The notes below the pieces were generated by a model. That model worked only from the letters and a program-made list of their open reading frames with translations. It made no database searches and was not told the origin of the DNA. A stretch of 19,815 nucleotides of DNA from Ferruginibacter sp. (GTDB lineage Bacteria > Bacteroidota > Bacteroidia > Chitinophagales > Chitinophagaceae). Position 1 is the first letter of the stretch; every line of letters begins with the position of its first letter. The DNA lies in assembly GCA_043770525.1 (NCBI GenBank), contig JAYVID010000149.1, positions 1 to 19,815 on the forward strand, read 5' to 3'. Shown piece after piece: positions 2,512-19,272 of the stretch. A program made the position numbers and the translations under genes.

Positions 2512-2542
2512 AATTATAATAACCCCCTTATTTTCTTACAAT

Positions 2543-2571
2543 AAAAGCCTCTATATTTTAGAGGTTTTTTT
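2543..2571. terminator. Putative bidirectional rho-independent terminator between convergent nrdA and the ATPase gene
   Basis: Hairpin CCTCTA (2548-2553) / TAGAGG (2559-2564) with a 5-nt loop, preceded by an A-run and followed by a T-run (2565-2571). Confidence 0.6.
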
Positions 2572-2605
2572 GTAAAAAATATTTTAAACCATTCATTTTT
2601 TAAAT

Positions 2606-3400: not shown

Positions 3401-3406
3401 ACATTT

Positions 3407-4342
3407 TTATTTTATTGGAACTGGCCAATTGTAACTTTTTATGATAAAAGAATCTTGCATATAAGACTCTCCTGTATTTCCTTCTATTGAAAAAGCTTTT
3501 TTGTTTTTGTCAAATCTTTCAACAAAAGTTCCTTTATTGTTTATTGAAAATAACCTAAAAGAAGCTCTATCGCTAGAGGGTACAAGTGTACAAAACTCAC
3601 TATTGTCAAAATTTAAAAAATCTAAATTAGTATCCCCGTCTACATCACCATAAAGCACATCAGAAGTAAATCTACAAGAATAAAAGCTACTTATTTTATT
3701 GGCACTAAAGGAATAAATTATTTGAAGACAAATATTATCTACTGAGCCGCCTGTATAAGGTAAATCAGCATCAAAATAACAATATTTTTTACCTTTAAAA
3801 GTAAACAACTTATAACTTTTTTCATTTAAAAATATTATATCTGCTATACTAGATTCAGATTTTTCCGGATTATAGTTTTTAATAAGCTTGCCGTTACAAA
3901 TTATTTTTTGAGATTCAATATCTCCAAATTTATAAATGGATACAAATTTTATATCCTTATTGCTAAGTGTATCATACCTAATTTTATTTTTTTTATTTAT
4001 AAAAACTGAATGAGCAAGCGTTTCATCGTTCAAAAATTTTATTTCGCTCCTGTTTATGTTTTTATAGATAAAATTATGAAGTAATAAACTATTTGTATCA
4101 ATTACATTTAGTTTTTCTGTTTCAATTTTTTCTGCAATATACCCTTTGTAATAACCTGAATCTTCTTCTGTGCGCCAAGGGAAAGCTACTGTATCATTGT
4201 ATCTATAAATCTTCTTTGTTTCTATTTTATTTTTAAAATTAAGGCTATCGCTTTTGTTATTTACTGTATCTTCATTTTTACTTTTTGTAATACAAGAAAA
4301 CAAAAAGAGTATAGGCAAACAGCTTTTAAAATGTAATTTCAT
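3407..4342 (-). CDS. Hypothetical lipoprotein
   Basis: 311-aa ORF with a signal peptide ending in a lipobox-like LFLFSC. It has an Asn/Lys-rich composition and a DVDGDTNLD calcium-binding/FG-GAP-like motif near the C-terminus. Its stop is 6 nt upstream of the ATPase start on the same strand. The gene is very AT-rich (15/60 G+C in line 3961). Confidence 0.6.
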   Translation of the reverse strand: MKLHFKSCLPILFLFSCITKSKNEDTVNNKSDSLNFKNKIETKKIYRYNDTVAFPWRTEEDSGYYKGYIAEKIETEKLNVIDTNSLLLHNFIYKNINRSEIKFLNDETLAHSVFINKKNKIRYDTLSNKDIKFVSIYKFGDIESQKIICNGKLIKNYNPEKSESSIADIIFLNEKSYKLFTFKGKKYCYFDADLPYTGGSVDNICLQIIYSFSANKISSFYSCRFTSDVLYGDVDGDTNLDFLNFDNSEFCTLVPSSDRASFRLFSINNKGTFVERFDKNKKAFSIEGNTGESYMQDSFIIKSYNWPVPIK

Positions 4343-4400
4343 GCTACTAAATTAAAGTAAAAAGTATGTTTAATCTTATCATTAAAAAAAGGAATTGTAA

Positions 4401-4688
4401 ATGATACCTGCAGAAATAAAAAATGCTGTCTTAAAAAAAATGAAAATGGGTTACCCAATAGGAGAACTAAAAGTAATGTTGGAAAAAGAAGGCTATAGTG
4501 AAGTAGAAATAAATGAGTGCTTTGAAAAACCAAGGCCAGACATGAGGTCGTGGTATTTGTTTTTTGGGTTGTTATTTTTTATTTCTGGTTTATGGGTTAT
4601 AATGCGGTATAATCACTTTGAACTAATTATTTTGGGCACAACCCTAATTTTATTGTATTTTAAAGAGGAAGATAAAAGAAAAAAGTAA
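4401..4688 (+). CDS. Small membrane protein (about 45-aa soluble N-terminal part plus two predicted TM helices), paralog A
   Basis: 95-aa ORF. Hydrophobic stretches WYLFFGLLFFISGLWVIM and LIILGTTLILLYF. About 80% identical by eye to ORF 5718..6023. Confidence 0.65.
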   Translation: MIPAEIKNAVLKKMKMGYPIGELKVMLEKEGYSEVEINECFEKPRPDMRSWYLFFGLLFFISGLWVIMRYNHFELIILGTTLILLYFKEEDKRKK

Positions 4689-4752
4689 ATATTTTATCCA
4701 ATTCTTGTAAGCATATTTTTTAATGCTTTAAAATAATGTAAAAATAATCTAT

Positions 4753-4797
4753 AAAAAAAGAGGTAAATTTTCGCTTTGAAAATTTACCTCTTTTTTT
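4753..4797. terminator. Bidirectional rho-independent terminator
   Basis: Perfect 13-bp stem AGAGGTAAATTTT (4759-4771) / AAAATTTACCTCT (4779-4791) with a 7-nt loop, an A-run upstream and a T-run downstream. It lies between convergent genes 4401..4688(+) and 4812..5630(-). Confidence 0.85.
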
Positions 4798-4811
4798 ATG
4801 AATTAATAAAA

Positions 4812-5630
4812 TTAAAATTGAAATCCAATCCTAATTCCTGTAACTACTGAAGGTGCAATTGAACTATTTTTTCCTGGAGATTTGATATCAATAGGAGTAG
4901 TTGTAGTGCTTGTTATAACAAAAGAAGCATTTACAACAGAAGTTGTGTTTTGACCAGTTATTTCCTTAGATTTTAAAGATTGGAAACCAAACCCTAACTC
5001 TGCACCTAAATATACATTTTTAACAATATAATATTCAGCACCCGTAACAAGCCTAAAGCCAAAACCACTACTTGCGTTTCCAGATGCATTTGAACCTTTT
5101 AAATTACCACTAAATCCCTGTTGAAAACTAGTTCCAGCAGTATTAGTATTTTCTCTTTTTTCAGAAGCATTGCTTGAAAAAACTAATAAATCTCCACCAA
5201 CGTATGTAGACAATCTATCAGAACCTTTGAAATGTTTTTCAACTCCAAGATTAATGGTTATACCACTATTCTTTGTTACCAATGAACCCTGTAAACCTGA
5301 AATAGGTAATCCTGTAGGGGCATAAAAATTCTTTGTATTTGATTTATTTGTTACGCTAAAACCAATTCTTGCAGCCAAATTGTTTGATAAAAAGTACCTG
5401 AATCTAAGTAAGCCAGCATTGTTGTTTAAAGCTAAATCAGTATTCATTAAACCTCCGGTAAGCCCAAATTCTGCAGTAATTGTACCAGTAATGGGCTTGT
5501 AATTTTTTATTTCTGCAACAACTTTCTTCATTGCTTCTACATTATAAGATTTTACAGTAGTGGTAGTTTTATTTTGTGCATTTGCGCCTAGTGCTCCTAT
5601 TGAAGCAAGTGTAAATAATAGTTTTCTCAT
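4812..5630 (-). CDS. Outer-membrane beta-barrel (porin-family/OmpA-N-like) protein
   Basis: 272-aa ORF with signal peptide MRKLLFTLASIGALGANAQ, alternating Gly/aromatic beta-strand pattern and a C-terminal aromatic signature ...GIRIGFQF. Confidence 0.75.
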   Translation of the reverse strand: MRKLLFTLASIGALGANAQNKTTTTVKSYNVEAMKKVVAEIKNYKPITGTITAEFGLTGGLMNTDLALNNNAGLLRFRYFLSNNLAARIGFSVTNKSNTKNFYAPTGLPISGLQGSLVTKNSGITINLGVEKHFKGSDRLSTYVGGDLLVFSSNASEKRENTNTAGTSFQQGFSGNLKGSNASGNASSGFGFRLVTGAEYYIVKNVYLGAELGFGFQSLKSKEITGQNTTSVVNASFVITSTTTTPIDIKSPGKNSSIAPSVVTGIRIGFQF

Positions 5631-5701
5631 TTTTTAGTTTTTTTTGTATTTTACAAATATCATGCCATGTAGTAATTTTACTACAAAAAGTGAATTGTTT
5701 T

Positions 5702-5709
5702 TATTTTTG
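5702..5709 (+). promoter_or_regulatory. Candidate Bacteroidota -7 promoter box (TAnnTTTG)
   Basis: TATTTTTG matches the TAnnTTTG consensus and sits just upstream of the small membrane gene / carB transcription unit. Confidence 0.3.
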
Positions 5710-5717
5710 AAGCATAG

Positions 5718-6023
5718 TTGATAAATAAATATACTGTTGTGACTGTTGAACAAAAAAAACAAATTCTTACGAAAATGAAAACTGGTTATCCAATTGGAGA
5801 ACTAAAAGCGATGTTGAAAAAAGAAGGATTTAACGAAGCAGAAATAAATGAATGCTTTAAAAAACCAAAACCAGACATGAGATCATGGTATTTGTTTTTT
5901 GGGTTGTTATTTTCAGTTTCTGGTATATGGTTTATAATGCGGTATAATCATTTTGAACTGATTATTTTGGGGACAGGCCTTATTCTATTGTTTTTTAAGG
6001 AGGTTGATAAAAGAAAAAAGTAA
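5718..6023 (+). CDS. Small membrane protein, paralog B
   Basis: 101-aa ORF homologous to 4401..4688 over its whole length. The start is uncertain (TTG 5718 or GTG 5739); similarity to paralog A already begins at VEQKKQILTKMK, so the start lies upstream of the first ATG. Confidence 0.6.
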   Translation: MINKYTVVTVEQKKQILTKMKTGYPIGELKAMLKKEGFNEAEINECFKKPKPDMRSWYLFFGLLFSVSGIWFIMRYNHFELIILGTGLILLFFKEVDKRKK

Positions 6024-6110
6024 GTGTTTTGGAAGGATAATAACAAGCGTATTTTTTATTTTACTTTTTTCAAGTTACTTTTACACGCCACAAAAAAGGC
6101 AATTCCTCTC

Positions 6111-7763
6111 ATGCCAAAAAACGAAAAAATACAATCAGTTTTAATTATTGGAAGTGGCCCTATTGTAATTGGCCAAGCCTGCGAATTTGACTATAGTGGT
6201 ACACAAGCCGCTCGTAGCCTGCGGGAAGAAGGGGTAAAGGTAATTTTGATAAACAGCAACCCTGCCACTATAATGACCGACCCTATGATGGCAGATAGGG
6301 TGTACTTACTGCCACTTACGGTAGAAAGTATTGAGCAAATTTTAGAAGAAAACCAAATAGATGCCGTACTACCAACCATGGGAGGACAAACTGCATTGAA
6401 CCTTTGCAAAGAAGTAGATGAACTGGGTATATGGGAGAAATATAATGTAGCCCTCATTGGTGTAGATATAAAAGCAATAGATAAAGCAGAAGACAGAGAA
6501 AAGTTTAGACTCTGGATGATTGAAATGGGCATACCCGTTTGCCAAGCACATATTGCCAATTCATTTTTAGAAGGAAAAGAATTTGCTCAAGAAATAGGAT
6601 TTCCATTGGTGCTTCGCCCATCCTTTACACTTGGTGGTAGCGGTGGTGGAATTGTATTTAAAAAAGAAGAACTAGATGAAGCCTTAAATAATGCCCTTAC
6701 TGCAAGCCCTATACATGAAGTATTAGTAGAAAAAGCAATAATAGGTTGGAAAGAATTTGAACTAGAGTTGTTGAGGGATAATGCAGATAATGTTGCCATT
6801 ATTTGTACGGTAGAAAATTTTGACCCCATGGGTGTACATACAGGTGACAGCATAACAGTTGCACCTGCTATGACCCTGAGTGATACTGCATATCAACTCA
6901 TGCGTAATACGGCAATTTCAATGATGCGCAACTTGGGAAATTTTGCTGGCGGTTGTAATGTACAGTTTGCGCTTAACCCACATACCGAAGAAATAATAGT
7001 GGTAGAAATAAACCCTCGTGTAAGCCGCAGCTCAGCACTAGCAAGCAAAGCCACAGGTTATCCCATTGCAAAAATAGCTGCTAAATTAGCAATAGGTTAT
7101 AATTTAGATGAACTTAAAAATCAAATTACGCAATCTACGTCCGCTTATTTTGAACCTGCGTTGGATTATGTAATTGTAAAAATACCTCGTTGGAATTTTG
7201 ATAAATTTAAAGGTGCTAATGATACACTTGGTTTTCAAATGAAATCGGTTGGAGAAGTAATGGCCATTGGCAGAAGCTTTGCAGAAGCCATACAAAAAGC
7301 TTGTGTGAGTTTAGAAAACGAAGCCGTTGGTTTGGGTTATTATGGCAAAAGTTTAATGAAAGCCGATGAACTAATTGAATACATAAAAATACCAAAGTGG
7401 GATAGGGTATTTCGTATAAAAGATGCGCTGATGGCGGGTGTGAGTGTAAAGCGTATTTGCGAAAGCACCAAAATAGACCGTTGGTTTATTTACCAAATTC
7501 AAAAAATAGCAGATTGCGAAAAAGAAATTGCGAAATACAATTTTGCATCATTACCTGAGGAATTATTGAGAGAAGCAAAAATGATTGGTTTCTCAGATGA
7601 ACAAATGGTACGCATTATGCAAGATGGTGATGCAGATGCTATGTATGAGCGTAGGAAAACATTGGGTATTACTCGTGTTTTTAAAATGGTAGATACTTGT
7701 AGTGCAGAGTTTGAGGCGAAGACGCCGTATTTTTATAGTACGTTTGAGAATAGTTCTTCGTAA
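6111..7763 (+). CDS. carB: Carbamoyl-phosphate synthase large subunit, N-terminal half (carboxyphosphate ATP-grasp unit plus oligomerisation domain)
   Basis: [30 protein letters not shown] matches the canonical CarB N-terminus (E. coli [30 protein letters not shown]), so ATG 6111 is preferred over the GTG at 6024. The ORF ends ...[24 protein letters not shown], at the position of E. coli ...[22 protein letters not shown]. Confidence 0.92.
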   Translation: [550 protein letters not shown]

Positions 7764-7787
7764 AATTAAATTATCAAAAATTTAGTT

Positions 7788-8048
7788 ATGCAAACATTAA
7801 TTATATCATCAAAAAATAAAAAATCTTTAAAAGCTATAAAGACCTTTGCTAAAGAACTAGATGATGTTACAATTACTGTCAAAGATGAAGAGGAAACGGA
7901 CGAATTCTTTTATATCAATGGAGTAAGAGTAAGAAAGGGGAAAGGAAAACTTGACATCGAAAAATTAGCAGGTAGTTTTCCTAATTTGGGTATGAACCCT
8001 AAGACTTTTAGAAAAAAGATATGGAGGAGAAAAAAATCAGAATTTTGA
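7788..8048 (+). CDS. Small protein with a strongly basic C-terminal tail; antitoxin-like by size and position, family not recognised
   Basis: 86-aa ORF starting 24 nt after the carB-N stop and ending 4 nt before the next ORF. The N-terminus MQTLIISSKNKKSLKAIKTFAKEL resembles small Bacteroidota antitoxin-type proteins I recall. The tail is KTFRKKIWRRKKSEF. Confidence 0.5.
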   Translation: MQTLIISSKNKKSLKAIKTFAKELDDVTITVKDEEETDEFFYINGVRVRKGKGKLDIEKLAGSFPNLGMNPKTFRKKIWRRKKSEF

Positions 8049-8052
8049 TAGA

Positions 8053-8523
8053 ATGAGTAGATTAAATCAAGAATATAAAAAACAAACAGAAAAAGAAATG
8101 TTCCTTGAAGAGTGGGAAGAGCCTTATTACAATGGTTTGTCTTCATGGAGAGAATATTTAGAAATATCATTAGAGTTTTTTAAGAAAGAGTTTAAAAGTT
8201 ATAATGAAAAAATTAAAGAAATAGACAAAATTCATGAAGGGAAATTTTATGAAGTTGATGATGGTTTTGCAGGAGTATATACAATAGATGGGCATGATGT
8301 ATATGAAGATGATATGATTGCTTTATCAGTAGCTAAGGATAAAGTATTTCCTTTAATTCTAATGGGTGTTTATACTGATTTTGAAAAAACATTAATAGGT
8401 ATTTGTAAGAGATTAGAATATTTAAAACCAAATCTGCAATCATTCAAAGGAGATAAAATTACAGAATGTAAAGATTATCTATGTGGGCCAAATATTCTAA
8501 ATATTGTTTTTCAGAATCTCTAA
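8053..8523 (+). CDS. N-terminal portion of a HEPN-like protein (or a separate 156-aa protein)
   Basis: 156-aa ORF that overlaps the next ORF by 43 nt in a different frame. The downstream frame is open from 8472, so a single-nt deletion (or a -1 shift) between 8472 and 8520 would fuse the two ORFs into a protein of about 250 aa. Confidence 0.5.
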   Translation: MSRLNQEYKKQTEKEMFLEEWEEPYYNGLSSWREYLEISLEFFKKEFKSYNEKIKEIDKIHEGKFYEVDDGFAGVYTIDGHDVYEDDMIALSVAKDKVFPLILMGVYTDFEKTLIGICKRLEYLKPNLQSFKGDKITECKDYLCGPNILNIVFQNL

Positions 8524-8810
8524 ATACATCATGGGACAGTATTTTGCAATTTAAGGCATTGAGAAATCTTCTAGTTCATAGTGATAATCCGATTGATATT
8601 ACTAAACTAGAAAAATCAAAAAAAGATGGCACCATTAAAAAAATCGGAGAAGAAAGATTAAGTCTTGTTAAAAACATTCAAGATATCTCTGTAAATGAAA
8701 ATAATTGGGTGTCCTTTGAAAACGAAAAACCATTACTTAATTTTATAGGAGTATGCGATGGTTTTATTAGTAATTTAATAACAGAAATAGCAAACAAAAT
8801 ATACGAATGA
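8481..8810 (+). CDS. HEPN-like domain protein carrying an R-x4-H motif (putative RNase toxin/Abi-type), C-terminal portion
   Basis: FKALRNLLVHSD, with R at 8562-8564 and H at 8577-8579, fits the HEPN R-N-x3-H signature and is preceded by the typical W..I..F helix. The TGA stop overlaps the ATG of the carB C-half (ATGA at 8807-8810). Confidence 0.5.
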   Translation: MWAKYSKYCFSESLNTSWDSILQFKALRNLLVHSDNPIDITKLEKSKKDGTIKKIGEERLSLVKNIQDISVNENNWVSFENEKPLLNFIGVCDGFISNLITEIANKIYE

Positions 8811-9988
8811 TACACAACGAATCAATAGTTTCCGCAAAGAAAAAAATAATTGTATTAGGTAGTGGTCCAAATCGTATTGGACAGGGTATAGAATTTGATT
8901 ATTGCTGTGTGCATGGTTTGCTTGCCATAAAAGAGGCAGGTATGGAAGCCATAATGGTAAACTGTAATCCTGAAACGGTGAGTACAGATTTTGACATGGC
9001 AGATAAATTATATTTTGAACCTGTGTATTGGGAGCATATTTGGGAAATAATAGAGCATGAAAAACCTGAGGGTGTTATTGTACAACTCGGTGGACAAACG
9101 GCTTTGAAACTCGCAAAAAAATTAACTGAAAAAGGTGTAAAAATAATTGGTACTTCTTTCGACAGTATGGATATAGCCGAAGACCGTGGGCGCTTTAGCG
9201 ATATTTTAAAAGAATTGGAAATTCCTTATCCAAATTATGGAACGGCATACAATACAGATGAAGCTATTGAAGTAGCAAAAGAAGTTGGTTATCCTGTACT
9301 TCTTCGCCCAAGCTATGTGTTAGGTGGGCAGCGTATGAGAATAGTTTTGAATGATGATGAATTGGAAAGCGGTGTGTTGAGTTTATTAAAACATTTGCCT
9401 GGCAATAAAATTTTGATAGATCATTTCTTAGACCGTTGCCAAGAGGCAGAAATAGATGCCATTTTTGATGGAGAAGATTTTCATGTAATGGGATTGATGG
9501 AGCACATAGAACCAGCAGGCATACACAGTGGTGATAGCAATGCCGTATTACCACAATTTAATCTTACCCCATTGGTGGTAATTGCTATGGAAGAGTATGC
9601 TGAAAAAATTGCAAGAACGCTCAACATAAAAGGCTTAATCAATATTCAATTTGCTATAAAAGATGGCAAAGTGTATGTGATAGAAGCTAACCCAAGAGCT
9701 AGTCGTACCACACCTTTTATTGCAAAAGCTTATGGCATACCCTATTTAAACATAGCTACAAAAGTAATGCTTGGTGTTGCTAAATTGAAAGACTATACTT
9801 TCACCAAAAATCTAACAGGCTTTGCCATAAAAGAACCTGTTTTCTCTTTCAATAAATTCCCTGGGGTAAACAAAGAGCTTGGGCCAGAAATGAAAAGTAC
9901 CGGTGAAGCCATTCGTTTTATAAAAGATTTACGAGACCCTTATTTTAGACAATTGTATAAGGAGCGGAGCATGCATTTGAGTAAGTAA
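8807..9988 (+). CDS. carB: Carbamoyl-phosphate synthase large subunit, C-terminal half (carbamoyl-phosphate synthetic ATP-grasp unit)
   Basis: [37 protein letters not shown]... aligns with E. coli ...[27 protein letters not shown]. Also conserved are [23 protein letters not shown] and [10 protein letters not shown]. The ORF ends 25 aa after [10 protein letters not shown], with no MGS-like allosteric domain. Confidence 0.92.
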   Translation: [393 protein letters not shown]

Positions 9989-10025
9989 AATATTTTTAAG
10001 GTTTGTTATTTTAGCAAACCTTTTT
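9886..10025 (+). repeat. Direct repeat copy 1 (carB 3' end plus terminator)
   Basis: Identical at 132 of 140 positions to 10876..11015 (offset 990 bp), compared base by base. Confidence 0.95.
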
Positions 10026-10028
10026 TTT
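9998..10028 (+). terminator. carB rho-independent terminator
   Basis: Stem AAGGTTTGTTA / TAGCAAACCTT (one G-U pair) with a 3-nt loop, followed by T8 (10021-10028). Confidence 0.85.
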
Positions 10029-10057
10029 GCACTAGCAGCATTTAAAAAATAAATATA

Positions 10058-10074
10058 GTTTTCATTTTGAAAAC
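10058..10074. promoter_or_regulatory. Inverted repeat; candidate HigA operator
   Basis: GTTTTCA-ttt-TGAAAAC: perfect 7-bp arms with a 3-bp spacer, 20 nt upstream of the higB ATG and just upstream of the -7 box. Confidence 0.4.
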
Positions 10075-10081
10075 TTAGTAA

Positions 10082-10089
10082 TATCTTTG
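10082..10089 (+). promoter_or_regulatory. Candidate -7 promoter box (TAnnTTTG) for higBA
   Basis: TATCTTTG matches the consensus and ends 4 nt before the higB ATG, implying a near-leaderless transcript. Confidence 0.35.
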
Positions 10090-10093
10090 CCTA

Positions 10094-10429
10094 ATGAACA
10101 TAATTGTAAAAAGAGCGATGCTTTATTACATAGATAAATACCCTAATGCAAAAATCTCCCTACTGGTTTGGTACAATGAATTTTTGGAGCAAGAATTTAA
10201 AAGTTTTAACGAACTGAAAGATGTTTATGGTAATGCTAGTATAGTCGCTAACAGTAGGGTAATATTTAATATAAAAGACAACGATTACAGGCTTATTGTT
10301 TCTGTAAATTTTAAGCAACTGGCGGCATACATTATTTGGTTTGGTACACACAAGCAGTATGATAAAATAGATACTGAAACAATACAATTTGACACTAAGA
10401 TTTTAAACTTTAAAGTAACAAAACAATGA
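10094..10429 (+). CDS. higB: Type II toxin HigB (E. coli YgjN/HigB-type RelE-fold mRNA interferase)
   Basis: The 111-aa protein aligns along its length with E. coli HigB as I recall it: KYPNAKISLLVWYNEF...FNELKDVY...VIFNIKDNDYRLIVSVNF...IIWFGTHKQYD versus KYPQHKTELVALGNTI...PESLKAVF...YVFNVGGNELRVVAMVFF...IREVMTHKEYD. Confidence 0.85.
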   Translation: MNIIVKRAMLYYIDKYPNAKISLLVWYNEFLEQEFKSFNELKDVYGNASIVANSRVIFNIKDNDYRLIVSVNFKQLAAYIIWFGTHKQYDKIDTETIQFDTKILNFKVTKQ

Positions 10430-10782
10430 CCCATAAAATAATAAAAACAGAAGCAGTTTATCAAAAAACAGTAAAACGTGCCATAGCCATTTTTGAGGCA
10501 AAAGAAGGCACACTTGAAGCTGATGAATTGGCATTATTGTTGGTGCTTGTAAAAGACTATGAAGATAAACACATACATATACCCATATTAAATCCTATAG
10601 ATGCTATAAAATTAAAAATGGAAGAAAATGGCATAAAACCCAAAGACCTTGAAACCGTTATTGGTAGTAAGGGGCATGTTTCTTCAATACTTACTGGACG
10701 TAGGGATATTACGCTTAAGGTTGCCCAACGATTGAAAAGTTATTTTAACCTGCCTGCAGAAATATTTTTACCAACTGTTTAA
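10426..10782 (+). CDS. higA: Type II antitoxin HigA (C-terminal HTH, YgjM-type)
   Basis: 118-aa ORF whose ATG overlaps the higB stop (ATGA). The C-terminal HTH IKPKDLETVIGSKGHVSSILTGRRDITLKVAQRLKSYFNLPAEIFL parallels E. coli HigA LTLSDLPEIGSKSMVSRVLSGKRKLTLEHAKKLATRFGISPALFI. The order is toxin first, as in higBA. Confidence 0.85.
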   Translation: MTHKIIKTEAVYQKTVKRAIAIFEAKEGTLEADELALLLVLVKDYEDKHIHIPILNPIDAIKLKMEENGIKPKDLETVIGSKGHVSSILTGRRDITLKVAQRLKSYFNLPAEIFLPTV

Positions 10783-10875
10783 TGAAATAACAAGTCTCTT
10801 AATTGGGCGAAATTTTTTTTTAGGAGACTTTTATATTAACTCTTAATTTCTATTAGTAAATAAAGCACTTTATCA

Positions 10876-11015
10876 AGAAATGAAAAGTACTGGTGAAGCC
10901 ATTCGTTTTATAAAAGATTTACGTGATCCATATTTTAGACAATTGTATAAAGAGCGGAGTATGCATTTGAGCAAGTAAAATATTTTTAAGGTTTGTTATT
11001 TTAGCAAACTTTTTT
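10876..11015 (+). pseudogene. Direct repeat copy 2: detached carB 3' fragment plus weakened terminator
   Basis: Contains a 33-codon frame (10880..10978) encoding [32 protein letters not shown], identical in protein to the last 32 residues of the carB C-half. The terminator stem carries a C-to-T change (11010) and a shorter T-run. Confidence 0.9.
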
Positions 11016-11039
11016 ATGGTAATTATAGTAGCCACAGTT

Positions 11040-11073
11040 GTGAAAGAAAAGTTTAGGTGAAAGAAAAGTTGAG
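11040..11073. repeat. Tandem direct repeat (14-mer GTGAAAGAAAAGTT twice, 17-bp period)
   Basis: GTGAAAGAAAAGTT at 11040-11053 and at 11057-11070, each followed by a 3-nt xAG. It lies between repeat copy 2 and the aat stop. Confidence 0.8.
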
Positions 11074-11083
11074 TAAATAAATT

Positions 11084-11722
11084 TCAGGAATTTGGATTTA
11101 AAATTTCCATATAGAGCCCTTGGCTTACCATTTCCGCACCCATACTTATCAAGTGTTCTGTCCTCACTTGACAGTCTATAAGGGTATATTTATTTTCTTT
11201 ACATAGCCATATCAATGCCGCTTTAGAAGCGTTGCTTACATTGCTGAACATACTTTCTCCACAAAATATTTTATTTATCTCAAGACCATATAAACCACCC
11301 ACCAATTTATTTTCTTGCCATACTTCTACACTTTTTGCAATACCTAATTTATGTAATTCTATATAAGCATATTGCATTTCGTTGGTTATCCATGTGCCAT
11401 CTTGGTCTTTTCTGTTTGTAGTAGCACAATGTTGTATTACTTCTTCAAAGCAAGTATTGGTTGTAATTTTAAATGCATTTTTTTGTAGTACTTGCTGCAT
11501 GCTTTTGCTTACAAATACTTTGTGAGGAAAAATCACACAACGCTCATGTGGTGCGTACCAGCATATAGGTTCATCATCACTATACCAAGGAAAAATTCCA
11601 CTTTGGTAAGCAAGTTGTAATCTTTCAATGCTTAAATCTCCACCTATTGCTAGCAATCCATCAAGTTCTGCCAGCATAGGATTTGGAAATGTAATATCTG
11701 TTTCATGTAATTGAAAAATCAT
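11084..11722 (-). CDS. aat: Leucyl/phenylalanyl-tRNA--protein transferase
   Basis: 212-aa ORF with characteristic Aat segments GLLAIGGDLS, AYQSGIFPWY, GGLYG and FCGESMF. Confidence 0.9.
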   Translation of the reverse strand: MIFQLHETDITFPNPMLAELDGLLAIGGDLSIERLQLAYQSGIFPWYSDDEPICWYAPHERCVIFPHKVFVSKSMQQVLQKNAFKITTNTCFEEVIQHCATTNRKDQDGTWITNEMQYAYIELHKLGIAKSVEVWQENKLVGGLYGLEINKIFCGESMFSNVSNASKAALIWLCKENKYTLIDCQVRTEHLISMGAEMVSQGLYMEILNPNS

Positions 11723-11732
11723 TTTTTAAATA

Positions 11733-13106
11733 CTATTTACTTATAGACAATTCTTTTTCAGTTACACTCCATGTGCCTAATTGTTCGCCTTTTATTCCAA
11801 TAAAATCTACCTTTAAAATTCTATTATTTTTTGTTCCGCTCACACTTATTTTTCCAAAATTTTGTGCTTCTACCAGTGTGCCTGCAACTCGATATGGATT
11901 ATTTTTTTCGTTACCGCTCGGCTTACTCACACCAGCCGTGTAAGGTGAAATGGTTACATCATAAAAAGGATAAAAATTTTGTTGCTCTACTTTTATTACT
12001 TCACTGTGGTGTCTATCACCTGTAAAAAATACGACACCTTCAATTTTTTGATTACGGATAAAATTTAATAATTCATTGTATTCATAACTATACTTTTGCA
12101 TAGTCTCATATTTGTTAAGTGGGTTTATCACCTGGCTACCTACTACTATTATTTTGAAGGTAGCATCACTAAACAACAATGAATTTTTTATCCATTCCAT
12201 TTGAGCTACTCCAAAAAACTGTTTGCTTGCTGTAGGCTTGCCTTCAATACTATCGGGCATTTTATCATTGCTTCTAAAATAACGATCATCTGTAAGAAAT
12301 AAATCTACATCACTATAATTTACTTTTGTATAAATACCTTTACCATCTTCACCATAGCTTGGGTTTGCACTAAAATTTTTAAACGTTTCTCTTGCATCTT
12401 CTTTCAAAATATAATTTTTACCTGCATCATTAGGCCCATAATCATGATCGTCCCAAATAGCATATTGCGGCATGCTTGCCATAAATTTTTGCAAAACCTT
12501 TTGAGAGCGTGCATGAGAGGCCCTGTAATTTAAACCCCAAGCAGATTCAAAATCCACTTCTCTTGTGTACCAATTATCTCCCATCCAAATATGAAAATCA
12601 GCTGGAGTATTAGCCATAGTTTCAAAAATAGTAGAGTCTCCACCATAAGGCTTTCCAGGTCTATCATAAATTGGCTCATTTATGTATGCACAGCTGCCTG
12701 CAAGAAAATTAAAGTCTGGAGCAGGTTTGCGGTATTGCCATAAATCCTGTGTTTTAAAATTTGTGAGAAAATCTGTTTTTACTTCTTTGTCATCAATTAT
12801 CAAATAAAAATGATACCAAGTATTAAAATCTAATCCATTCAATTCTATTTTTATTGGGTTAAAATCTTTTCCTAATTCCCCCTTAAATTCTTTTGTAATT
12901 ATTTTTGGCACTGTAGTTTTCAAACTGTTATCTATTTCTAAATAACGCACTGCTACTTTTTTTACTGATCTTGCCACTTCTACCCAAATAGTTGCTGTAC
13001 GTAAACCCACATTACCTGCCCAAGGGCCACTAATTAATTTATTTTGCTGTCCATAACTGTTTGCATATAATAGTACACATACTAAAAAAGAAATTATACG
13101 ATTCAT
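11733..13106 (-). CDS. PhoD-like (alkaline phosphatase D family) metallophosphatase, secreted
   Basis: 457-aa ORF with an N-terminal signal peptide and metallophosphoesterase motifs MGDNWY, WDDHDYGPND and GDRHHSE. Confidence 0.85.
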   Translation of the reverse strand: MNRIISFLVCVLLYANSYGQQNKLISGPWAGNVGLRTATIWVEVARSVKKVAVRYLEIDNSLKTTVPKIITKEFKGELGKDFNPIKIELNGLDFNTWYHFYLIIDDKEVKTDFLTNFKTQDLWQYRKPAPDFNFLAGSCAYINEPIYDRPGKPYGGDSTIFETMANTPADFHIWMGDNWYTREVDFESAWGLNYRASHARSQKVLQKFMASMPQYAIWDDHDYGPNDAGKNYILKEDARETFKNFSANPSYGEDGKGIYTKVNYSDVDLFLTDDRYFRSNDKMPDSIEGKPTASKQFFGVAQMEWIKNSLLFSDATFKIIVVGSQVINPLNKYETMQKYSYEYNELLNFIRNQKIEGVVFFTGDRHHSEVIKVEQQNFYPFYDVTISPYTAGVSKPSGNEKNNPYRVAGTLVEAQNFGKISVSGTKNNRILKVDFIGIKGEQLGTWSVTEKELSISK

Positions 13107-13134
13107 AATGTTGGGTTATTAATTTTTTGAAAAA

Positions 13135-13470
13135 TTATTGTAATTTTTCATTGTTTAAATGACGAGTAGCATCTCTTGTAGTTTTCTTTTCAAAGTTTTT
13201 TTGCAATGCCTCTGAAAGATTAACCCCAGTTTGATTTGCAAGACATATTAAAACCCACAACACATCAGCCATTTCATCGCCTAAGTCTTTTCCTTTATCA
13301 CTTTCTTTAAAAGATTGTTCACCATAGGTACGCACCATCAATCTTGAGAGTTCACCTACTTCTTCCATTAAAATACCAAGGTTGGTAAGTTCACTAAAAT
13401 ATTTTACGCCAATGGTTTTTATCCATTCATCTACTTTTTGTTGGGCTTCATTTATGGTAATATCATTCAT
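13135..13470 (-). CDS. MazG-like nucleotide pyrophosphohydrolase (small single-domain type)
   Basis: 111-aa ORF with an EExGE-type motif (LMEEVGELSR) and a second acidic helix (LGDEMADVLW). Its start overlaps the dtd stop by 1 nt. Confidence 0.8.
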   Translation of the reverse strand: MNDITINEAQQKVDEWIKTIGVKYFSELTNLGILMEEVGELSRLMVRTYGEQSFKESDKGKDLGDEMADVLWVLICLANQTGVNLSEALQKNFEKKTTRDATRHLNNEKLQ

Positions 13471-13922
13471 TATTCTTTATTTTTTGTATCTATAATAATT
13501 GTAAGTGGCCCATCATTTATTAAACCCACTTTCATATCTGCCCCAAAAATACCTGTACCTATTTTCTTTCCTAAATCTTTTTCTAATTGCAAAATAAATT
13601 GTTCGTACAAAGGTATTGCCACATCTGGCTTTGCTGCTTTTATGTACGACGGCCTATTGCCTTTTTTAGTAGATGCTTGTAAAGTGAATTGACTAACCAA
13701 TAATACTTCTCCTTCTATATCTTTTACTGATAAATTAGGAACATGTTCTACATCATCAAAAATTCTAAGATTCACAATTTTATTGCTTAACCATTCAATA
13801 TCTTCATTGCTATCTGCGTCTTCTATACCTACAAAAACAAGTAGCCCTATACCAATTTCTGAAACAATTTTTTTATCAACTGTTACAGATGCAGACGAAA
13901 CTCTTTGTAGGATAGCTTTCAT
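13470..13922 (-). CDS. dtd: D-aminoacyl-tRNA deacylase
   Basis: 150-aa ORF: MKAILQRV..., SQFTL, KGNRPS, and a GADM...NDGP(L/V)T C-terminal signature. Confidence 0.92.
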   Translation of the reverse strand: MKAILQRVSSASVTVDKKIVSEIGIGLLVFVGIEDADSNEDIEWLSNKIVNLRIFDDVEHVPNLSVKDIEGEVLLVSQFTLQASTKKGNRPSYIKAAKPDVAIPLYEQFILQLEKDLGKKIGTGIFGADMKVGLINDGPLTIIIDTKNKE

Positions 13923-13924
13923 AA

Positions 13925-14353
13925 TTAGAATTTAGTAGTATATCCAAAATATTTGAATGTTAAATAAATTGAAATAGTAATTACTGTTGCAATTAAAGAA
14001 GCAACCATGCCTTTTCTAAAAAATTTATAACTCAAAACAAAACGAACTGAATCTGACAAGTAAACTGCTTCCTTTTGAATTTTGAAAGATTTAAATTGAT
14101 AATAAACACCAATTAAAATTACAATACTTTGAAACAAATAAGCAATTGGGATAATTTTGTATTTTAAGATAAAATCAGACTGTATATATGCGCCAGTTTG
14201 TCTATAAAAAAATTCAATAGTTTGTCTATAAAATGAAAATAAGATCCAAACTAGATAAACACTTATACAAACTCTAAATAATTTGAAAGTACTATTTATT
14301 TCCTTAGTACATTCTTCATCTAAAACAATTTCTTTTTTTAATTTATCTTCCAT
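13925..14353 (-). CDS. Hypothetical integral membrane protein
   Basis: The ORF has about four hydrophobic helices. The ATG at 14353 (MEDKLKK...) is preferred; the ORF-track start at 14377 is a TTG that would overlap the upstream gene by 14 nt. Confidence 0.55.
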   Translation of the reverse strand: MEDKLKKEIVLDEECTKEINSTFKLFRVCISVYLVWILFSFYRQTIEFFYRQTGAYIQSDFILKYKIIPIAYLFQSIVILIGVYYQFKSFKIQKEAVYLSDSVRFVLSYKFFRKGMVASLIATVITISIYLTFKYFGYTTKF

Positions 14354-14363
14354 AACGTGATTT

Positions 14364-15536
14364 TTATCCCACCTCAAAGTCTAATTTACACTCTACTAAA
14401 GCAGCATTTAGTTTACCTTCTTTTAAATATTGTGTAAGCCTGGTAAGTCTTAAAAAATAAATTTCATAGTCTGCGCCATATACTGCTGCAAGGCTCTGTT
14501 TTTCAAGCTCAGAAAGTTTGCCATCAAATGCAGCAGAAACAGTAAATAAATCTAGTAAAAAAAACCGTTCCTCCGGGCTTACTTTTTTTAAGGAGCCCAA
14601 AAAAATTGCCCAGTCATCAAATTTATCTGCATCTTTTATATTTAATATTTCTTGAAATTTAAAAAACAGTATTACCATATTTGGATGATAATTTTGTGCC
14701 ATTACTACTGCATTTCCTATTGCTTGTAAGCAGCTTTTTTTTGCCTCATTAGAAAGCTTAGCTAGATAACCATCCGAAATAATATTTTTACCTATTTGGT
14801 TTGCAAGGGCAAAACCAAATAATCGTAAGCGGGCATCCATAACTACTTTTCTTATTACAATGCTATTCCAAAAACACTCTACTAATATGGCTTCATATAA
14901 AATAGAAACACCAAATATGGTTTTGCCTACAAAAAAAACAAGTCCATATTTAAGTAATATATTACTTAAAAATATTTTTGCTTTGTATAATAAACTTATA
15001 AGTAAAATATTTTTTTTGGATACTCTTTTAAAAGGGTCTATGCCCATTAGTTTCATCTCAGGATCTGGCAATTCCAATGCTGCCCTTGCTAAAATATTGT
15101 TTACATTAAAAGCTCCTTCTTTTAATAATTCATTTTCACTGTTTCTAAGATTTATAAGCTCACTTACTTTATATACAGATCTTAATGAAATGATAAATAA
15201 CAAATATAATTCTACAGCCACACTTACTATGGTAACAATTGTAAACCACCCATAATGTACAATCCAAGATTCGTTTTCAAAATATACATCTACCCATACT
15301 GTAGGAAAAACAAATACAAATCCTACTATACATGATAATATGATTCCTACTAAAGTAATTCTATTTACTCGTTTTGAAAGTTCTGCATCAGTTAAATCAA
15401 ACACACTATGGTCGCTATCTTTTTGTTTAAAAAAATGTAGATAGTATAAACCAAAACGCTCAAGTAAGCTAGGTTTGGTTTCTGTTATTTCGTAATAAGG
15501 TTTCTTTGTCAATATTAATTTTTTTTGATACTGCAA
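14364..15536 (-). CDS. Hypothetical multi-pass membrane protein with a soluble helical C-terminal region (TerB-like flavour, unverified)
   Basis: 390-aa ORF with a TTG start at 15536 and no nearby in-frame ATG, so the start is uncertain. It has several TM segments. The C-terminal FFLLDLFTVSAAFDGKLSELEKQSL resembles TerB-type D-G-x-hydrophobic-x2-E repeats. Confidence 0.55.
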   Translation of the reverse strand: MQYQKKLILTKKPYYEITETKPSLLERFGLYYLHFFKQKDSDHSVFDLTDAELSKRVNRITLVGIILSCIVGFVFVFPTVWVDVYFENESWIVHYGWFTIVTIVSVAVELYLLFIISLRSVYKVSELINLRNSENELLKEGAFNVNNILARAALELPDPEMKLMGIDPFKRVSKKNILLISLLYKAKIFLSNILLKYGLVFFVGKTIFGVSILYEAILVECFWNSIVIRKVVMDARLRLFGFALANQIGKNIISDGYLAKLSNEAKKSCLQAIGNAVVMAQNYHPNMVILFFKFQEILNIKDADKFDDWAIFLGSLKKVSPEERFFLLDLFTVSAAFDGKLSELEKQSLAAVYGADYEIYFLRLTRLTQYLKEGKLNAALVECKLDFEVG

Positions 15537-15731
15537 TATATAACAATCATTATTTTTTTTTATAATCTAAAGGGTGTACTTAAATTTTTGTTAGTTAAAT
15601 TTTGAAAACGACTTTTTGAAAGTAATTTATTGCTTAAAAACTATTAAGATAAAATGATTATTTATTATAATTTAATAATCAATAAAATTGCAGATCAACT
15701 TTTTGTATCTTAATGCTAAAAGAGACGCATT

Positions 15732-15776
15732 AAAAAACCTCTACTAATTACAGTTTCTGTAAAAGCAGAGGTTTTT
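15732..15776. terminator. Putative bidirectional terminator downstream of the YtxH-like gene
   Basis: A-run, then CCTCT (15738-15742) ... AGAGG (15767-15771) enclosing an inner TTACAG/CTGTAA stem, then a T-run. Confidence 0.5.
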
Positions 15777-15796
15777 AAATTTTATAATTTTTTATT

Positions 15797-16096
15797 TTAT
15801 GCTGATGGTGGAGTTGGATCTACTTTTTTGTTATCAAATAATTCACTCATCATTTTTTCAGCATCTGCCATGTGCTCTTTTAAAGCTTCTGCTCCCTTCG
15901 ATTTTAATTCTACAAAATAATCTTTTGCCTTTTCTGCAAAGTTTTCTGCTTCATCTTTTAGTTGGTTTGCTTTGCTTTTTAAATCACCCGCTAGTTTTTC
16001 TTTTTCCTCTGGGCTCATGCTCATGTATTTGTTTGCAGCTAGTGCAGCAGCAGCTCCTAATAAAAAGGTGGCAATATGTTTTGAATTTACACTCAT
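15797..16096 (-). CDS. YtxH-like small stress protein (N-terminal membrane anchor plus charged coiled coil)
   Basis: 99-aa ORF with a hydrophobic IATFLLGAAAALAA segment followed by a Lys/Glu-rich helical region. Confidence 0.55.
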   Translation of the reverse strand: MSVNSKHIATFLLGAAAALAANKYMSMSPEEKEKLAGDLKSKANQLKDEAENFAEKAKDYFVELKSKGAEALKEHMADAEKMMSELFDNKKVDPTPPSA

Positions 16097-16124
16097 TTTG
16101 TGATTTTTTAAAGTATTAATAAAT

Positions 16125-16132
16125 TATTTTTG
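16125..16132 (+). promoter_or_regulatory. Candidate -7 promoter box (TAnnTTTG)
   Basis: TATTTTTG lies 18 nt upstream of the M23 peptidase ATG. Confidence 0.35.
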
Positions 16133-16149
16133 TTGCTTACTATAAAGAT

Positions 16150-17853
16150 ATGAAGTTATTTACATTAAGTTTTATTATTAGCCTATCTCTTTTTTCTTCA
16201 AATACGAAAGGGCAAATTTTTACAAAAAAGAATTACGATCAAAATTTTTTTAAATGGCCTGTAGGCGCTCAAATAGCTATTGTTGCAAATTTTGGTGAGT
16301 TGCGCCCAAACCACTACCACATGGGGTTAGATTGTAGAACAGATAAAAAAGAAAATATGCCTATTTATGCTGCTGCGGATGGATATATTGCAAAAGTAAA
16401 AATTGAGCCTTATGGTTTTGGCAGGTGCATTTATATAAACCATGCCAATGGATTAACTTCCGTTTATGCGCATTTAAATGCATTTGAACCCAGTTTAGAA
16501 AGATATATTACAAATGAGCAATATAAATTAGAAAGTTGGAAAGTGTTTTTAGAAATCCCGAAGGGGATGTTTAAAGTAAAGCAAGGAGATTTTATTGCCG
16601 CAAGTGGTAATACAGGTGGATCACAAGGGCCGCATTTGCATTTTGAAATAAGAGATACAAAATCTGATAAATGTTTAAACCAATTAATGTTTGGATTACC
16701 TATACCAGACAATGTAGCTCCAGAAATTATAAGACTTGCTGTGTATGATAGAATGAAAAGTACTTTTGATCAGTCTCCCAAATTTTATCCAATAAAAAAA
16801 GTAAATGGACAGTATACAGTTGTTGGTGGTAAAATTATTGCAGCATCCAATAAAGTAAGTTTTGCTTTATCTATGCAAGATAAAACCAATGGCTCTAGCA
16901 ATGCTATTGGTGTATATGCTGCGGCCGTTTTGGATGATGACAACCTTGTTACAAAATTTGAAATAGATAGCATTAGCTATGCTGAAACGAGGTATATGAA
17001 CGCACACATCGACCATAAAATGAAAATAAATGGAGGTCCTTATGTGCAGCATCTTTCGCCATTGCCGGGTTACGAAGATTTTATTTATACAACAGATCAA
17101 AAAAATGGTGTTGTATTACTAAATGATTCAAATATTCATAAAATAAAAATTATTGTAGCAGATGCTAATGGTAACAGATCTAATTTAGTTTTTGATTTAA
17201 TTGCTCCTACAAGTATTGCAGCAAGACCAACGATAGATGCTGTACAAAAATTTGTACCTAATTTTATAAATGTTTTTGAAACCAGTAAAGTAAAATTTTA
17301 CTTGCCAGAAAATGCATTGTATGATACTGTAAATTTTACATTTAAAGAAATGCCATCTGCAGATGGTAAAAGCATTTATCAGTTGCATACTGCCGCAGTA
17401 CCTGTGCAGTGTATGTATCCAATAAGTATAAGAGAAAATTTTGCTGTAGAAGATACTGGCAAAATTGTGATGTATCGTTTTTTTGGAAGTAAAAAAGATT
17501 TTGCAAAAGCCAAGTACAATAAAGGCTGGTACACTGCTTCGTTTAGAGAGTTTGGCAATTTTATGCTTATGGTAGATAGAACAGCACCCAACATAGTACC
17601 CATTGGTTTTAGAGATGGTATGAATGCCGCAAACTTAACTAGAATTATGTTTAATATAAAAGACAATACAGAAGATATTGTAAATTTTACAGCATTACTA
17701 GATGGAAAATGGCTACGCTTTAGCAATGATAAAGGGGTAAATTTTATTTATAAGTTTGATGAGCATTGCCCTCCTGGAGAACATGAATTAAAAATAAGCG
17801 CTACCGACCAAGTAGGTAATACCAGCGAGAAAATATTTACTTTTACAAGATAA
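16150..17853 (+). CDS. M23 family metallopeptidase with a long uncharacterised C-terminal extension
   Basis: 567-aa ORF with a signal peptide. M23 motifs are HYHMGLD (HxxxD) and GNTGGSQGPHLHFEIRD (HxH). About 380 further residues have no recognised domain. Confidence 0.85.
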   Translation: MKLFTLSFIISLSLFSSNTKGQIFTKKNYDQNFFKWPVGAQIAIVANFGELRPNHYHMGLDCRTDKKENMPIYAAADGYIAKVKIEPYGFGRCIYINHANGLTSVYAHLNAFEPSLERYITNEQYKLESWKVFLEIPKGMFKVKQGDFIAASGNTGGSQGPHLHFEIRDTKSDKCLNQLMFGLPIPDNVAPEIIRLAVYDRMKSTFDQSPKFYPIKKVNGQYTVVGGKIIAASNKVSFALSMQDKTNGSSNAIGVYAAAVLDDDNLVTKFEIDSISYAETRYMNAHIDHKMKINGGPYVQHLSPLPGYEDFIYTTDQKNGVVLLNDSNIHKIKIIVADANGNRSNLVFDLIAPTSIAARPTIDAVQKFVPNFINVFETSKVKFYLPENALYDTVNFTFKEMPSADGKSIYQLHTAAVPVQCMYPISIRENFAVEDTGKIVMYRFFGSKKDFAKAKYNKGWYTASFREFGNFMLMVDRTAPNIVPIGFRDGMNAANLTRIMFNIKDNTEDIVNFTALLDGKWLRFSNDKGVNFIYKFDEHCPPGEHELKISATDQVGNTSEKIFTFTR

Positions 17854-17862
17854 AAAAAAATT

Positions 17863-17934
17863 GGCCTCGTAGTATAATGGATAGTATTAGAGCCTCCGAA
17901 GCTCCAGATTCAGGTTCGATTCCTGACGAGGTCA
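17863..17934 (+). tRNA. tRNA-Arg (anticodon CCG)
   Basis: 72-nt cloverleaf folded by hand. The acceptor stem is GGCCTCG/CGAGGTC (one G-U), the D-loop has GG, the anticodon loop is CTCCGAA (U33, CCG, A37), the variable loop is 4 nt, the T-arm is TCAGG-TTCGATT-CCTGA and the discriminator is A. There is one A-C mismatch at 27:43, and CCA is not encoded. Confidence 0.85.
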
Positions 17935-18079
17935 CAATTATTTTTGATTTGAAGATTGCTGATTTAAGATTTTTTTAAATCAAACAATTTAATTTTTTTG
18001 CAATCGAATTTACTTAAATCCTTTAAATATGTGAGCTAAATATTTTTTATTGGATTATTTTTAAATAAAATTGATATTA

Positions 18080-19120: not shown

Positions 19121-19272
19121 AATGTAAATTGTTTAATTATTGTATTGATAAATTATTTTACAATTTTTATTACTAATTTCTTAATAGCTTTTAAGTAATA
19201 AATGAAAAAAAGGGTGCAAAAAAGACAAACAAAAATTTCATTAATCAACTAAAAAACTAATCCACCATCCAC

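Follow-up and report, generated by a model that had tools for sequence, protein, structure and literature searches.

A second carB 3′ end behind a higBA operon in Ferruginibacter, and comparable relics at carB loci of its relatives

Among the cis-mobilizable elements (CIMEs) and the cargo-only remnants in tRNA-flanked islands (tycheposons), short cargo is bounded by attachment site (att)-like direct repeats of the target-gene end and lacks recombination genes; an integrase-bearing element with the same att site can be identified from which such forms arose or on which they rely. The higBA cassettes of Vibrio superintegrons are small, self-contained and relocatable units, for which attC sites and the integrase IntI are needed. 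At the e14/icd locus of Escherichia coli, the two gene ends differ mainly at synonymous positions and can recombine with each other to give back a functional, chimeric gene (PMC13626634, citing Hill et al. 1989). Also in E. coli, single crossovers with truncated circular donors duplicated 109–950 bp of the homologous anchor, and this route was more frequent than true homology-facilitated illegitimate recombination (HFIR) (PMC3240628). HFIR has been proposed for the displacement of effector 3′ ends in type VI secretion system (T6SS) and rhs loci (PMC5361080). Here, we describe a direct repeat of the 3′ end of carB that brackets a higBA toxin-antitoxin operon in Ferruginibacter sp. (Chitinophagaceae). 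It lies in assembly GCA_043770525.1, contig JAYVID010000149.1, positions 1–19,815 of the forward strand, and we refer to this whole stretch of 19,815 nucleotides as the window. Its G+C content is 32%, and the closest genome records are Ferruginibacter metagenome-assembled genomes (MAGs), with 96–98% amino-acid identity in the C-terminal half of CarB (CarB-C).

The two copies of the carB end, their terminators and the segment between them are arranged as follows:

9886–10025, + strand: repeat copy 1, with the last 33 carB codons, the stop codon and the terminator; weaker similarity reaches back to 9866
9998–10030, + strand: intrinsic terminator of carB, with an 11-pair stem at 9998–10022, a 3-nt loop and a T-run
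10026–10875, + strand: inserted cargo segment with an intact higBA operon
10876–11015, + strand: repeat copy 2, i.e. the displaced carB 3′-end relic and its terminator, with a degenerate extension back to 10856
10988–11020, + strand: relic terminator, weakened in the window strain (G-U pair)

An earlier note on this DNA had described a 140-bp carB-end repeat around higBA with eight differences, of which the seven in the coding part are synonymous, and our base-by-base comparison reproduces this observation. At an offset of 990, the 140 nt contain exactly eight differences, seven of them coding (9901, 9934, 9937, 9940, 9961, 9970 and 9982) and one in the terminator (10020). All seven coding differences fall on third-codon positions and are synonymous (ACC/ACT, CGA/CGT, GAC/GAT, CCT/CCA, AAG/AAA, AGC/AGT and AGT/AGC), and both copies encode the same 32-residue peptide, followed by the stop codon, a hairpin and a T-run. 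The free-standing relic frame pointed out in the same note (10880–10978) is present in the list of open reading frames (ORFs) of the window; it is ATG-initiated and has 32 codons. A repeat search lengthens the pair by 20 nt to the left (9866–10025 and 10856–11015, 91%), and in this extension 13 of the 20 bases match and the changes are non-synonymous (VNKELGPE vs VNKALYQE).

The comparison with other strains dates these differences. We also collected about 160 carB loci of Ferruginibacter and Chitinophagaceae from genomes and metagenomes; L-numbers are our labels for the contigs and genome loci compared, and WIN is that for the window strain. A second strain of the same species (L167/L184; ERZ27315222) is 98.7% identical to the window from carB-C to the M23 peptidase gene and covers the entire region, i.e. 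aat, the relic, higAB and carB. When the four repeat copies of the two strains are compared, the C at 9901 in the functional copy proves to be a single-nucleotide polymorphism of the window strain, since a T is found at this position in copy 1 of L184 as well as in the relics. The terminator difference at 10020, which had been taken to weaken the stem of copy 2, does so in the window (folding energy of −8.2 kcal/mol, against −10.9 kcal/mol for copy 1), but it is a recent loss of 1 nt in the window relic, and in the relics of L167, L168, L171 and L173 the CC and the full stem are preserved. The older differences are thus six (9934, 9937, 9940, 9961, 9970 and 9982), all of them synonymous and all within 49 nt, and the ancestral copies were identical over the 48 nt to their left as well as over the 37-nt non-coding tail with the terminator. 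The L086 relic has a synonymous change (AGT to AGC) and that of L167 an Asp to Asn replacement (GAT to AAT). Because of this non-synonymous change and of the indel in the window relic, the relic is taken as neutral and drifting today.

Could the repeat be an artefact of assembly, or the relic ORF a selected small protein? Short contigs do break inside the repeat (L002, L086, L168 and L170–L173), and an ATG-initiated frame of 32 codons has been kept. We nevertheless regard both ideas as highly improbable. The whole structure is spanned in two strains with copy-specific variants (L167/L184, L185, and L169 with L001), and contigs of several samples contain it: L001 and L169 (both ERZ27314298), L002 (SRR23617298), L086 (SRR22198287), L185 (GenBank MAG contig JAYVKE010000194) and the short contigs L186–L189. 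The possibility of an assembly error, which the earlier note had named as a potential refutation, does not hold up against these data. A conserved small protein, in turn, is at odds with the Asp to Asn change in L167 and with the relics at other carB loci described below, of which those in L021, L145, L030 and L153 bear frameshifts, stops and amino-acid changes.

The pattern of differences is not what a useless duplicate acquires by drift. We simulated a duplication in situ with neutral evolution of the relic and with synonymous changes alone tolerated in the functional copy; exclusively synonymous differences then arose with a probability of about 0.0009 for seven differences and 0.0026 for six. 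A second test of the synonymous excess in the window gave P = 0.005–0.007. Simple in-situ duplication with neutral decay was rejected on these grounds, the differences not being random by codon position, and among the loci of this study only L153 fits it. At least part of one copy hence comes from another functional carB allele, as had been argued from the window sequence. The further proposal that a foreign carB 3′ end arrived together with higBA stands in part: one stretch does come from a different functional allele, but this stretch spans only 49 nt, and its flanks of 48 nt and 37 nt were originally identical. No other species compared shares the terminator of this locus. Given this terminator and the originally identical tail, any donor must have been a very close relative, or else the foreign stretch was brought in on its own as a short tract of recombination. 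The carB ends of relatives, to which both copies were compared for the native one, show both states at the variable sites; identity to the nearest other species does not exceed 88.5% in carB-C, and the variable repeat sites are saturated.

These observations also bear on an alternative that we consider unlikely, namely that a stretch of 140–160 nt was duplicated in situ with the insertion of higBA, by template switching at the carB terminator or by tandem duplication and loss, and that one of the two copies, identical at first, later received an import of 49 to ~118 nt from a diverged carB allele by homologous recombination and with it all six synonymous differences. The identity of the ancestral copies across the 48 nt on the left and the entire tail, and a terminator found in no other species, are what such a history would leave behind. 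The six differences are clustered, although this statistic is only marginal (P ~0.05–0.07), and in this population recombination tracts from donors of ~3–8% divergence do extend as far as the 3′ end of carB, as seen between WIN and L184. However, two events are needed, and the relics in L021 and L030 are 12–26% diverged throughout, mostly at synonymous sites. Sequences this divergent could hardly have come in by a later homologous import, and duplication and import would leave these relics unexplained.

Five further loci carry a relic of the carB 3′ end behind different small cargo, which makes six of 162 loci with the window included. They are listed here with their cargo and with the extent of the relic relative to the carB stop codon:

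L021 (Ferruginibacter sp. HRS2-29): RhuM; relic from −126 to +2, with 16 nt differences, 1 amino-acid change and 1 indel
L145: RhuM, probably the same event as in L021; relic from −126, more decayed
L030: 124-aa ORF; relic from −126 to 0, 26% diverged, with 17 synonymous and 7 non-synonymous codons; Uma2 follows 12 nt after the relic
L144: 67-aa antitoxin-like ORF; relic from −95 to +2, with 3 synonymous codons and 1 non-synonymous codon
L153, relic A: clan-AA protease; relic from about −150/−128 to −51, fitting neutral decay
L153, relic B: behind 466 nt that hold a truncated helix-turn-helix (HTH) gene; relic from about −86 to +52, fitting neutral decay

The synonymous excess recurs in three of these loci with other cargo (P = 0.00015 in L021, 0.0006 in L030 and 0.04 in L144), which answers the worry, raised as a potential refutation, that the pattern might be due to chance with seven sites. 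The window pattern is thus part of a recurrent phenomenon rather than an accident of these sites. The boundaries of the relics vary: over all events, the left ends lie at about −150, −126, −126, −123/−102, −95 and −85, and the right ends at −51 (L153 relic A), 0, +2, +2, +37 and +52. In L021, L030 and L144, the relics stop at the stop codon and have no hairpin. Moreover, cargo genes are cut at the junctions, for instance in L153, where the truncated HTH gene abuts relic B, and in L021 and L145, where the stop codon of RhuM lies inside the relic. A few comparable gene-end relics of other genes also occur in the same loci. The carB end itself is highly conserved, with the last ~45 CarB residues nearly invariant in the genome-collection loci shown and the last 48 identical in every functional copy shown.

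The matches of a look-up with the 32-aa relic were also considered as relics and were rejected, as they are mostly contigs that start ~100 nt before the carB stop codon, plus two frameshifted carB genes (L177 and L178). Many metagenome contigs (L175, L176 and L179–L183) have their first base only 1–3 nt ahead of the ATG that opens the MKSTGE... codons, at a distance of ~100 nt from the stop codon of carB. Their starts most likely reflect the bias of an exact-product look-up, though they coincide with the sharp left boundary of the window repeat.

The explanation that we favour, tentatively and as one falling just short of probable, is a homology-anchored ‘3′-end displacement’ through recombination at the carB end, with an illegitimate far join and without an integrase. 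An incoming segment, in which the self-contained higBA operon is preceded by a carB 3′ end with terminator, would recombine with the chromosome, with the highly conserved carB sequence as the homologous anchor, and its cargo end would join illegitimately ~100–125 nt upstream of the resident stop codon. This might proceed by HFIR with a linear fragment or, equally, by a single crossover with a circularized fragment carrying ~100–160 nt of carB; a site-specific recombinase would be unnecessary for either. The outcome would be an intact carB with its terminator and then the cargo, behind which the resident tail of carB and its terminator would persist as a relic without function, joined to aat as before. 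We infer this direction, with copy 1 as the one that came in, along with the pathway itself, from the footprints described above; the adjacency of aat to the relic is the same in all same-species contigs. The six old differences would be synonymous because the stretch stems from another functional carB allele, either that of the donor or that of a separate short homologous import. In the process, carB would retain its full reading frame and its own terminator.

The same repeats offer a way back. As had been suggested for them, the 140-bp repeats are long enough to act as homology arms for a homologous loss of the cassette, and RecA-dependent recombination between them could delete higBA precisely and restore the order carB-terminator-aat. 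The loss of higA would, however, be counter-selected, and higBA may in this way stabilize the arrangement. No deletion variant of this kind was found in eight or more samples, a small sampling; this would fit a counter-selection of antitoxin loss. Likewise, the narrow range of relic lengths (85–150 nt) may reflect a balance, in which there is enough homology to pair, yet long repeats are quickly lost.

Several observations weigh against a displacement of this kind. Three independent relics start 2–3 nt or less from −126 (L021/L145, L030 and, at about −128, L153 relic A), and these shared starts could instead indicate a preferred recombination site. The confinement of the six differences to 49 nt, together with the identical tail, means that the cargo need not have brought a foreign 3′ end with it; with none of the 37 tail positions differing and six of 33 third-codon positions doing so, the hypergeometric P is ~0.008. 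At the left boundary, seven mismatches in 12 nt (9874–9885 vs 10864–10875) stand beside a 10-nt match, GTAAATAAAG (in copy 1 and relic of L167), which sits 12 nt to the left of the sharp repeat boundary; read as a junction, this pattern departs from a textbook join at a microhomology. A same-species empty site (carB-terminator-aat) was not found, all far-reaching contigs being filled and few having been sampled, and neither was a donor arrangement of carB, terminator and higBA without a relic. Finally, natural competence is suggested solely by the comEC gene that lies next to carB in relatives.

The searches behind these statements covered several routes. Genome and metagenome scans with carB-C for a same-species strain without higBA returned only other species, and exact-protein look-ups with aat, HigA, HigB, carB-C and the 32-aa relic returned only filled sites or contigs ending inside the repeat. 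The empty site whose search the earlier note had recommended was consequently met only in its filled form among same-species contigs. The deletion or circular products across the repeats that it had envisaged were likewise absent from the assembled contigs, since all short contigs are collinear with the window. Its statement that no integrase is present agrees with our Pfam scan of the window ORFs, which found no recombinase and did not include the ORFs of 80 aa or more at 15797–16096, 18080–19120 and 19273–19815. Nor was a recombinase found by Pfam among the neighbours of the relics in L021 and L030, or by a crude regular-expression screen for the tyrosine-recombinase motif in ORFs within ±10 kb of carB in 167 loci, or among the top 25 families listed in a Pfam scan of 92 ORFs downstream of carB, which is a weak test. 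A related integrase-bearing element at carB was not found in 162 loci with flanks of up to 10 kb, a range that larger elements would escape.

It is against this background that a rather unlikely alternative has to be judged, in which the carB 3′ end is the attachment site of small integrase-less cassettes, either CIME-like or remnants of integrative elements, that each bring a replacement end and are moved by a recombinase in trans. Direct repeats flanking a cargo next to an intact functional gene are in line with it, and so are the starts at ~−126 shared by relics with three different cargos and the two relic pieces in series in L153, which look array-like. At the same hotspot, carB relics occur in six of 162 loci, whereas relics of the comEC 5′ end occur in none of 108 at the carB-comEC interval, and e14 with icd and icdC provides a precedent with synonymous differences (PMC13626634). 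On the other hand, neither the Pfam scans near L021 and L030 nor the motif screen of the 167 loci revealed an integrase, both the left and the right repeat boundaries differ between events, cargo genes are cut short at the junctions, other genes have left similar relics, and the higBA module occurs elsewhere without carB sequence. The missing recombinase, the variable junctions, the cut or fused cargo genes and the relics of other genes together argue against a classical att/integrase element, and the comparison with islands that insert at gene 3′ ends by means of an integrase, which had been drawn for this locus, is weakened by the first three of these points.

Three types of known element were accordingly considered for the window and set aside. 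For an e14-like, integrase-mediated island at a gene 3′ end, the direct repeats of the gene end and the reconstituted gene are present, but recombinase, empty site and circle were not found in the searches above, with few same-species contigs sampled. For a CIME-like cis-mobilizable cassette, no integrase-bearing element was found at the same att site in the 162 loci. For an integron gene cassette, the bounding repeats are a coding 3′ end, and no integrase was found. A broader idea, which we deem distinctly improbable, is that the carB 3′ end, and perhaps the inter-domain linker too, is a dedicated landing site in Chitinophagaceae for tiny integrase-less selfish cassettes (toxin-antitoxin, RhuM, small antitoxin-like and protease genes), each with a replacement end and moved by a recombinase in trans or by an undescribed homology-guided mechanism. 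If this were true, lodging in or against an important biosynthetic gene would make the imprecise loss of a cassette costly.

The cargo in the window and the gene behind it comprise the following features:

10056–10075, no strand assigned: palindrome AGTTTTC-N5-GAAAACT upstream of higB, read from the sequence
10094–10429, + strand: higB toxin gene, 111 aa; Pfam PF09907 HigB_toxin (E = 1.9e-25, profile positions 2–74 of 74)
10426–10782, + strand: higA antitoxin gene, 118 aa; HTH_3; 4-nt overlap with higB
11084–11722, − strand: aat (leucyl/phenylalanyl-tRNA protein transferase); Pfam Leu_Phe_trans; the flank attached to the relic

The 850-bp insert encodes only higBA, which matches type II toxin-antitoxin systems of the HigBA kind in the RelE-fold toxin domain of HigB and in gene order, with the toxin first and the overlapping HTH antitoxin second. 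HigB has 964 homologues, many of which are named mRNA interferase HigB; a scan of HigB against NCBIfam gave no match. The palindrome upstream of higB, which also matches itself in reverse in L083/L084, is likely the HigA operator, and higBA would carry its own promoter and operator region. Its transcripts probably end at the relic terminator, ahead of the convergent aat. In relatives, higBA homologues are 86–91% identical, with the homology limited to 10041–10802 (86–87% at the nucleotide level), and those in L083/L084/L085 adjoin Sua5/HisKA genes, with no pieces of carB there. A search for the same higBA between carB ends elsewhere, as had been proposed, thus leads to homologues at Sua5/HisKA without carB sequence. 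None of the ~160 carB loci of relatives has higBA at carB, and a check of the relatives' higBA homologues for flanking gene-end repeats found none.

Upstream of the repeat, carB itself is interrupted and consists of three parts in the window:

6024–7763, + strand: N-terminal half of carB, 579 aa; Pfam CPSase_L_D1/D2/D3; the stop codon lies inside the inter-domain linker
7764–8806, + strand: carB-splitting cassette with ORFs 7788–8048, 8053–8523 and 8481–8810
8807–9988, + strand: C-terminal half of carB, 393 aa, recognized by Pfam; the functional gene, which ends in repeat copy 1

The first ORF of the cassette (7788–8048) encodes 86 aa, is antitoxin-sized and has a weak match to DUF2683; for 8053–8523 and 8481–8810 no family was found, and the latter overlaps the start of carB-C (ATGA). 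At the same place, L184/L185 of the same species (L184 2503–3175) carry an 85-aa ORF and a PIN/VapC-like ORF of 137 aa. Split carB genes are also listed for L003, L008, L069 and L077, and most relatives have one continuous carB of about 946–980 aa. Between WIN and L184, divergence peaks around the swapped mid-carB cassette and fades at ~7000 and ~9900, the differences at 9865, 9871 and 9901 lying at the end of such a tract of raised divergence. In this species, carB thus acts as a homology arm, and homologous cassette exchange is active at the locus.

The surroundings of carB vary as well. The ancestral order is a divergent M23 peptidase gene, which most relatives have upstream of carB, then carB, comEC, purH and onward, whereas in the window carB is followed by aat-phoD-mazG-dtd, two unknown genes and then M23 (16150–17853, + strand), 6 kb downstream. 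Given this position of M23 and the absence of comEC and purH from the window, the window locus has been rearranged; M23 also lies downstream on the same strand in L011 and L012. In 108 loci with a carB-comEC spacing, the interval ranges from 11 nt to 8 kb, with at least 630 nt inserted in 48 of them, mostly without relics. The inserted genes, often single ones of a defence-like or mobile type, include Uma2 nuclease, ORF6N, PRTase (PsyrT-like), RhuM, NERD, HTH and methylase genes, and the carB-comEC interval is an insertion hotspot in Chitinophagaceae.

Other repeats were seen in and near these loci. A second repeat in the window, just upstream of carB (4437–4695 and 5772–6030; 259 nt, 86% identical, offset 1335), was considered as a case of the same phenomenon and rejected, as it consists of two intact paralogues with both synonymous and non-synonymous differences. 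Its genes (4401–4688 and 5718–6023) encode small membrane-type proteins that differ in 12 synonymous and 15 non-synonymous codons, and they flank a 272-aa ORF of unknown family (4812–5630, − strand). L030 has three 37-nt palindromic elements resembling repetitive extragenic palindromes (REP) just downstream of the carB relic (10030–10066, 11401–11437 and 12136–12172), which are adjoined by an IS200-like Y1 transposase ORF similar to REP-associated tyrosine transposases (11452–11913, − strand; RAYT-like). In L021, 18136–19410 consists of near-identical direct repeats, with a stretch of 545 nt that is 100% identical at an offset of 730 nt; the end of this locus holds three ORFs of 243 nt at a spacing of 365 nt, and each repeat has an 80-aa ORF on the minus strand. 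In the window, further upstream of carB, an AAA ATPase gene resembles the PtuA/AriA/GajA defence ATPases (2606–3400, − strand; PADLOC E = 1e-16 to 1e-17; Pfam AAA_15/AAA_21), and a 311-aa ORF without a family follows it (3407–4342, − strand). The two lie between a ribonucleotide reductase gene and carB and are a possible two-gene defence system.

What emerges is a clear natural example of the way in which a small accessory operon can enter a chromosome beside a conserved housekeeping gene without mobile-element machinery. It identifies carB and its surroundings as a hotspot of exchange, including the toxin-antitoxin-like cassette, variable between strains, by which carB is divided in two. The footprint, a displaced gene end with synonymous differences, is recognizable and can be searched for genome-wide, so that homology-anchored insertions can be counted; standard island finders miss them because they look for integrases or tRNA sites.

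Among the known systems, membership in the families of integrase islands, CIMEs or integrons is not supported by the features tested. Unlike for the CIMEs and tycheposon remnants, no integrase-bearing element was found for carB, and unlike the cassettes of the Vibrio superintegron, the carB case is bounded by a gene end, with no integron features seen. The insertions of e14 and phage 21 at icd are closer: there, as here, the insert supplies a replacement 3′ end for a housekeeping gene, and the original end stays downstream as a pseudogene fragment (icdC). But e14 is a prophage of 15 kb that encodes an integrase and uses a defined att core, whereas the insert described here has 850 bp, only higBA and no recombinase, and junctions vary between comparable events. 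Laboratory HFIR and single crossovers share with our locus the combination of one homologous anchor with one non-homologous end, and their range of 109–950 bp includes its 140 nt; those were selected events with plasmid donors, whereas here the pathway is read from natural footprints. In the C-terminal displacement of rhs, contact-dependent inhibition (CDI) and T6SS genes, too, a conserved 5′ part is shared, and the old 3′ end is pushed back together with the downstream genes, with orphan fragments that are sometimes serial. The displaced ends in these systems are different toxin domains, and the displacement diversifies function, whereas at carB a single peptide of a metabolic enzyme is specified by both ends and the cargo is an unrelated toxin-antitoxin operon. 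The carB case resembles e14-icd/icdC in structure only, and the displacement in rhs, CDI and T6SS loci in the process that likely produced it.

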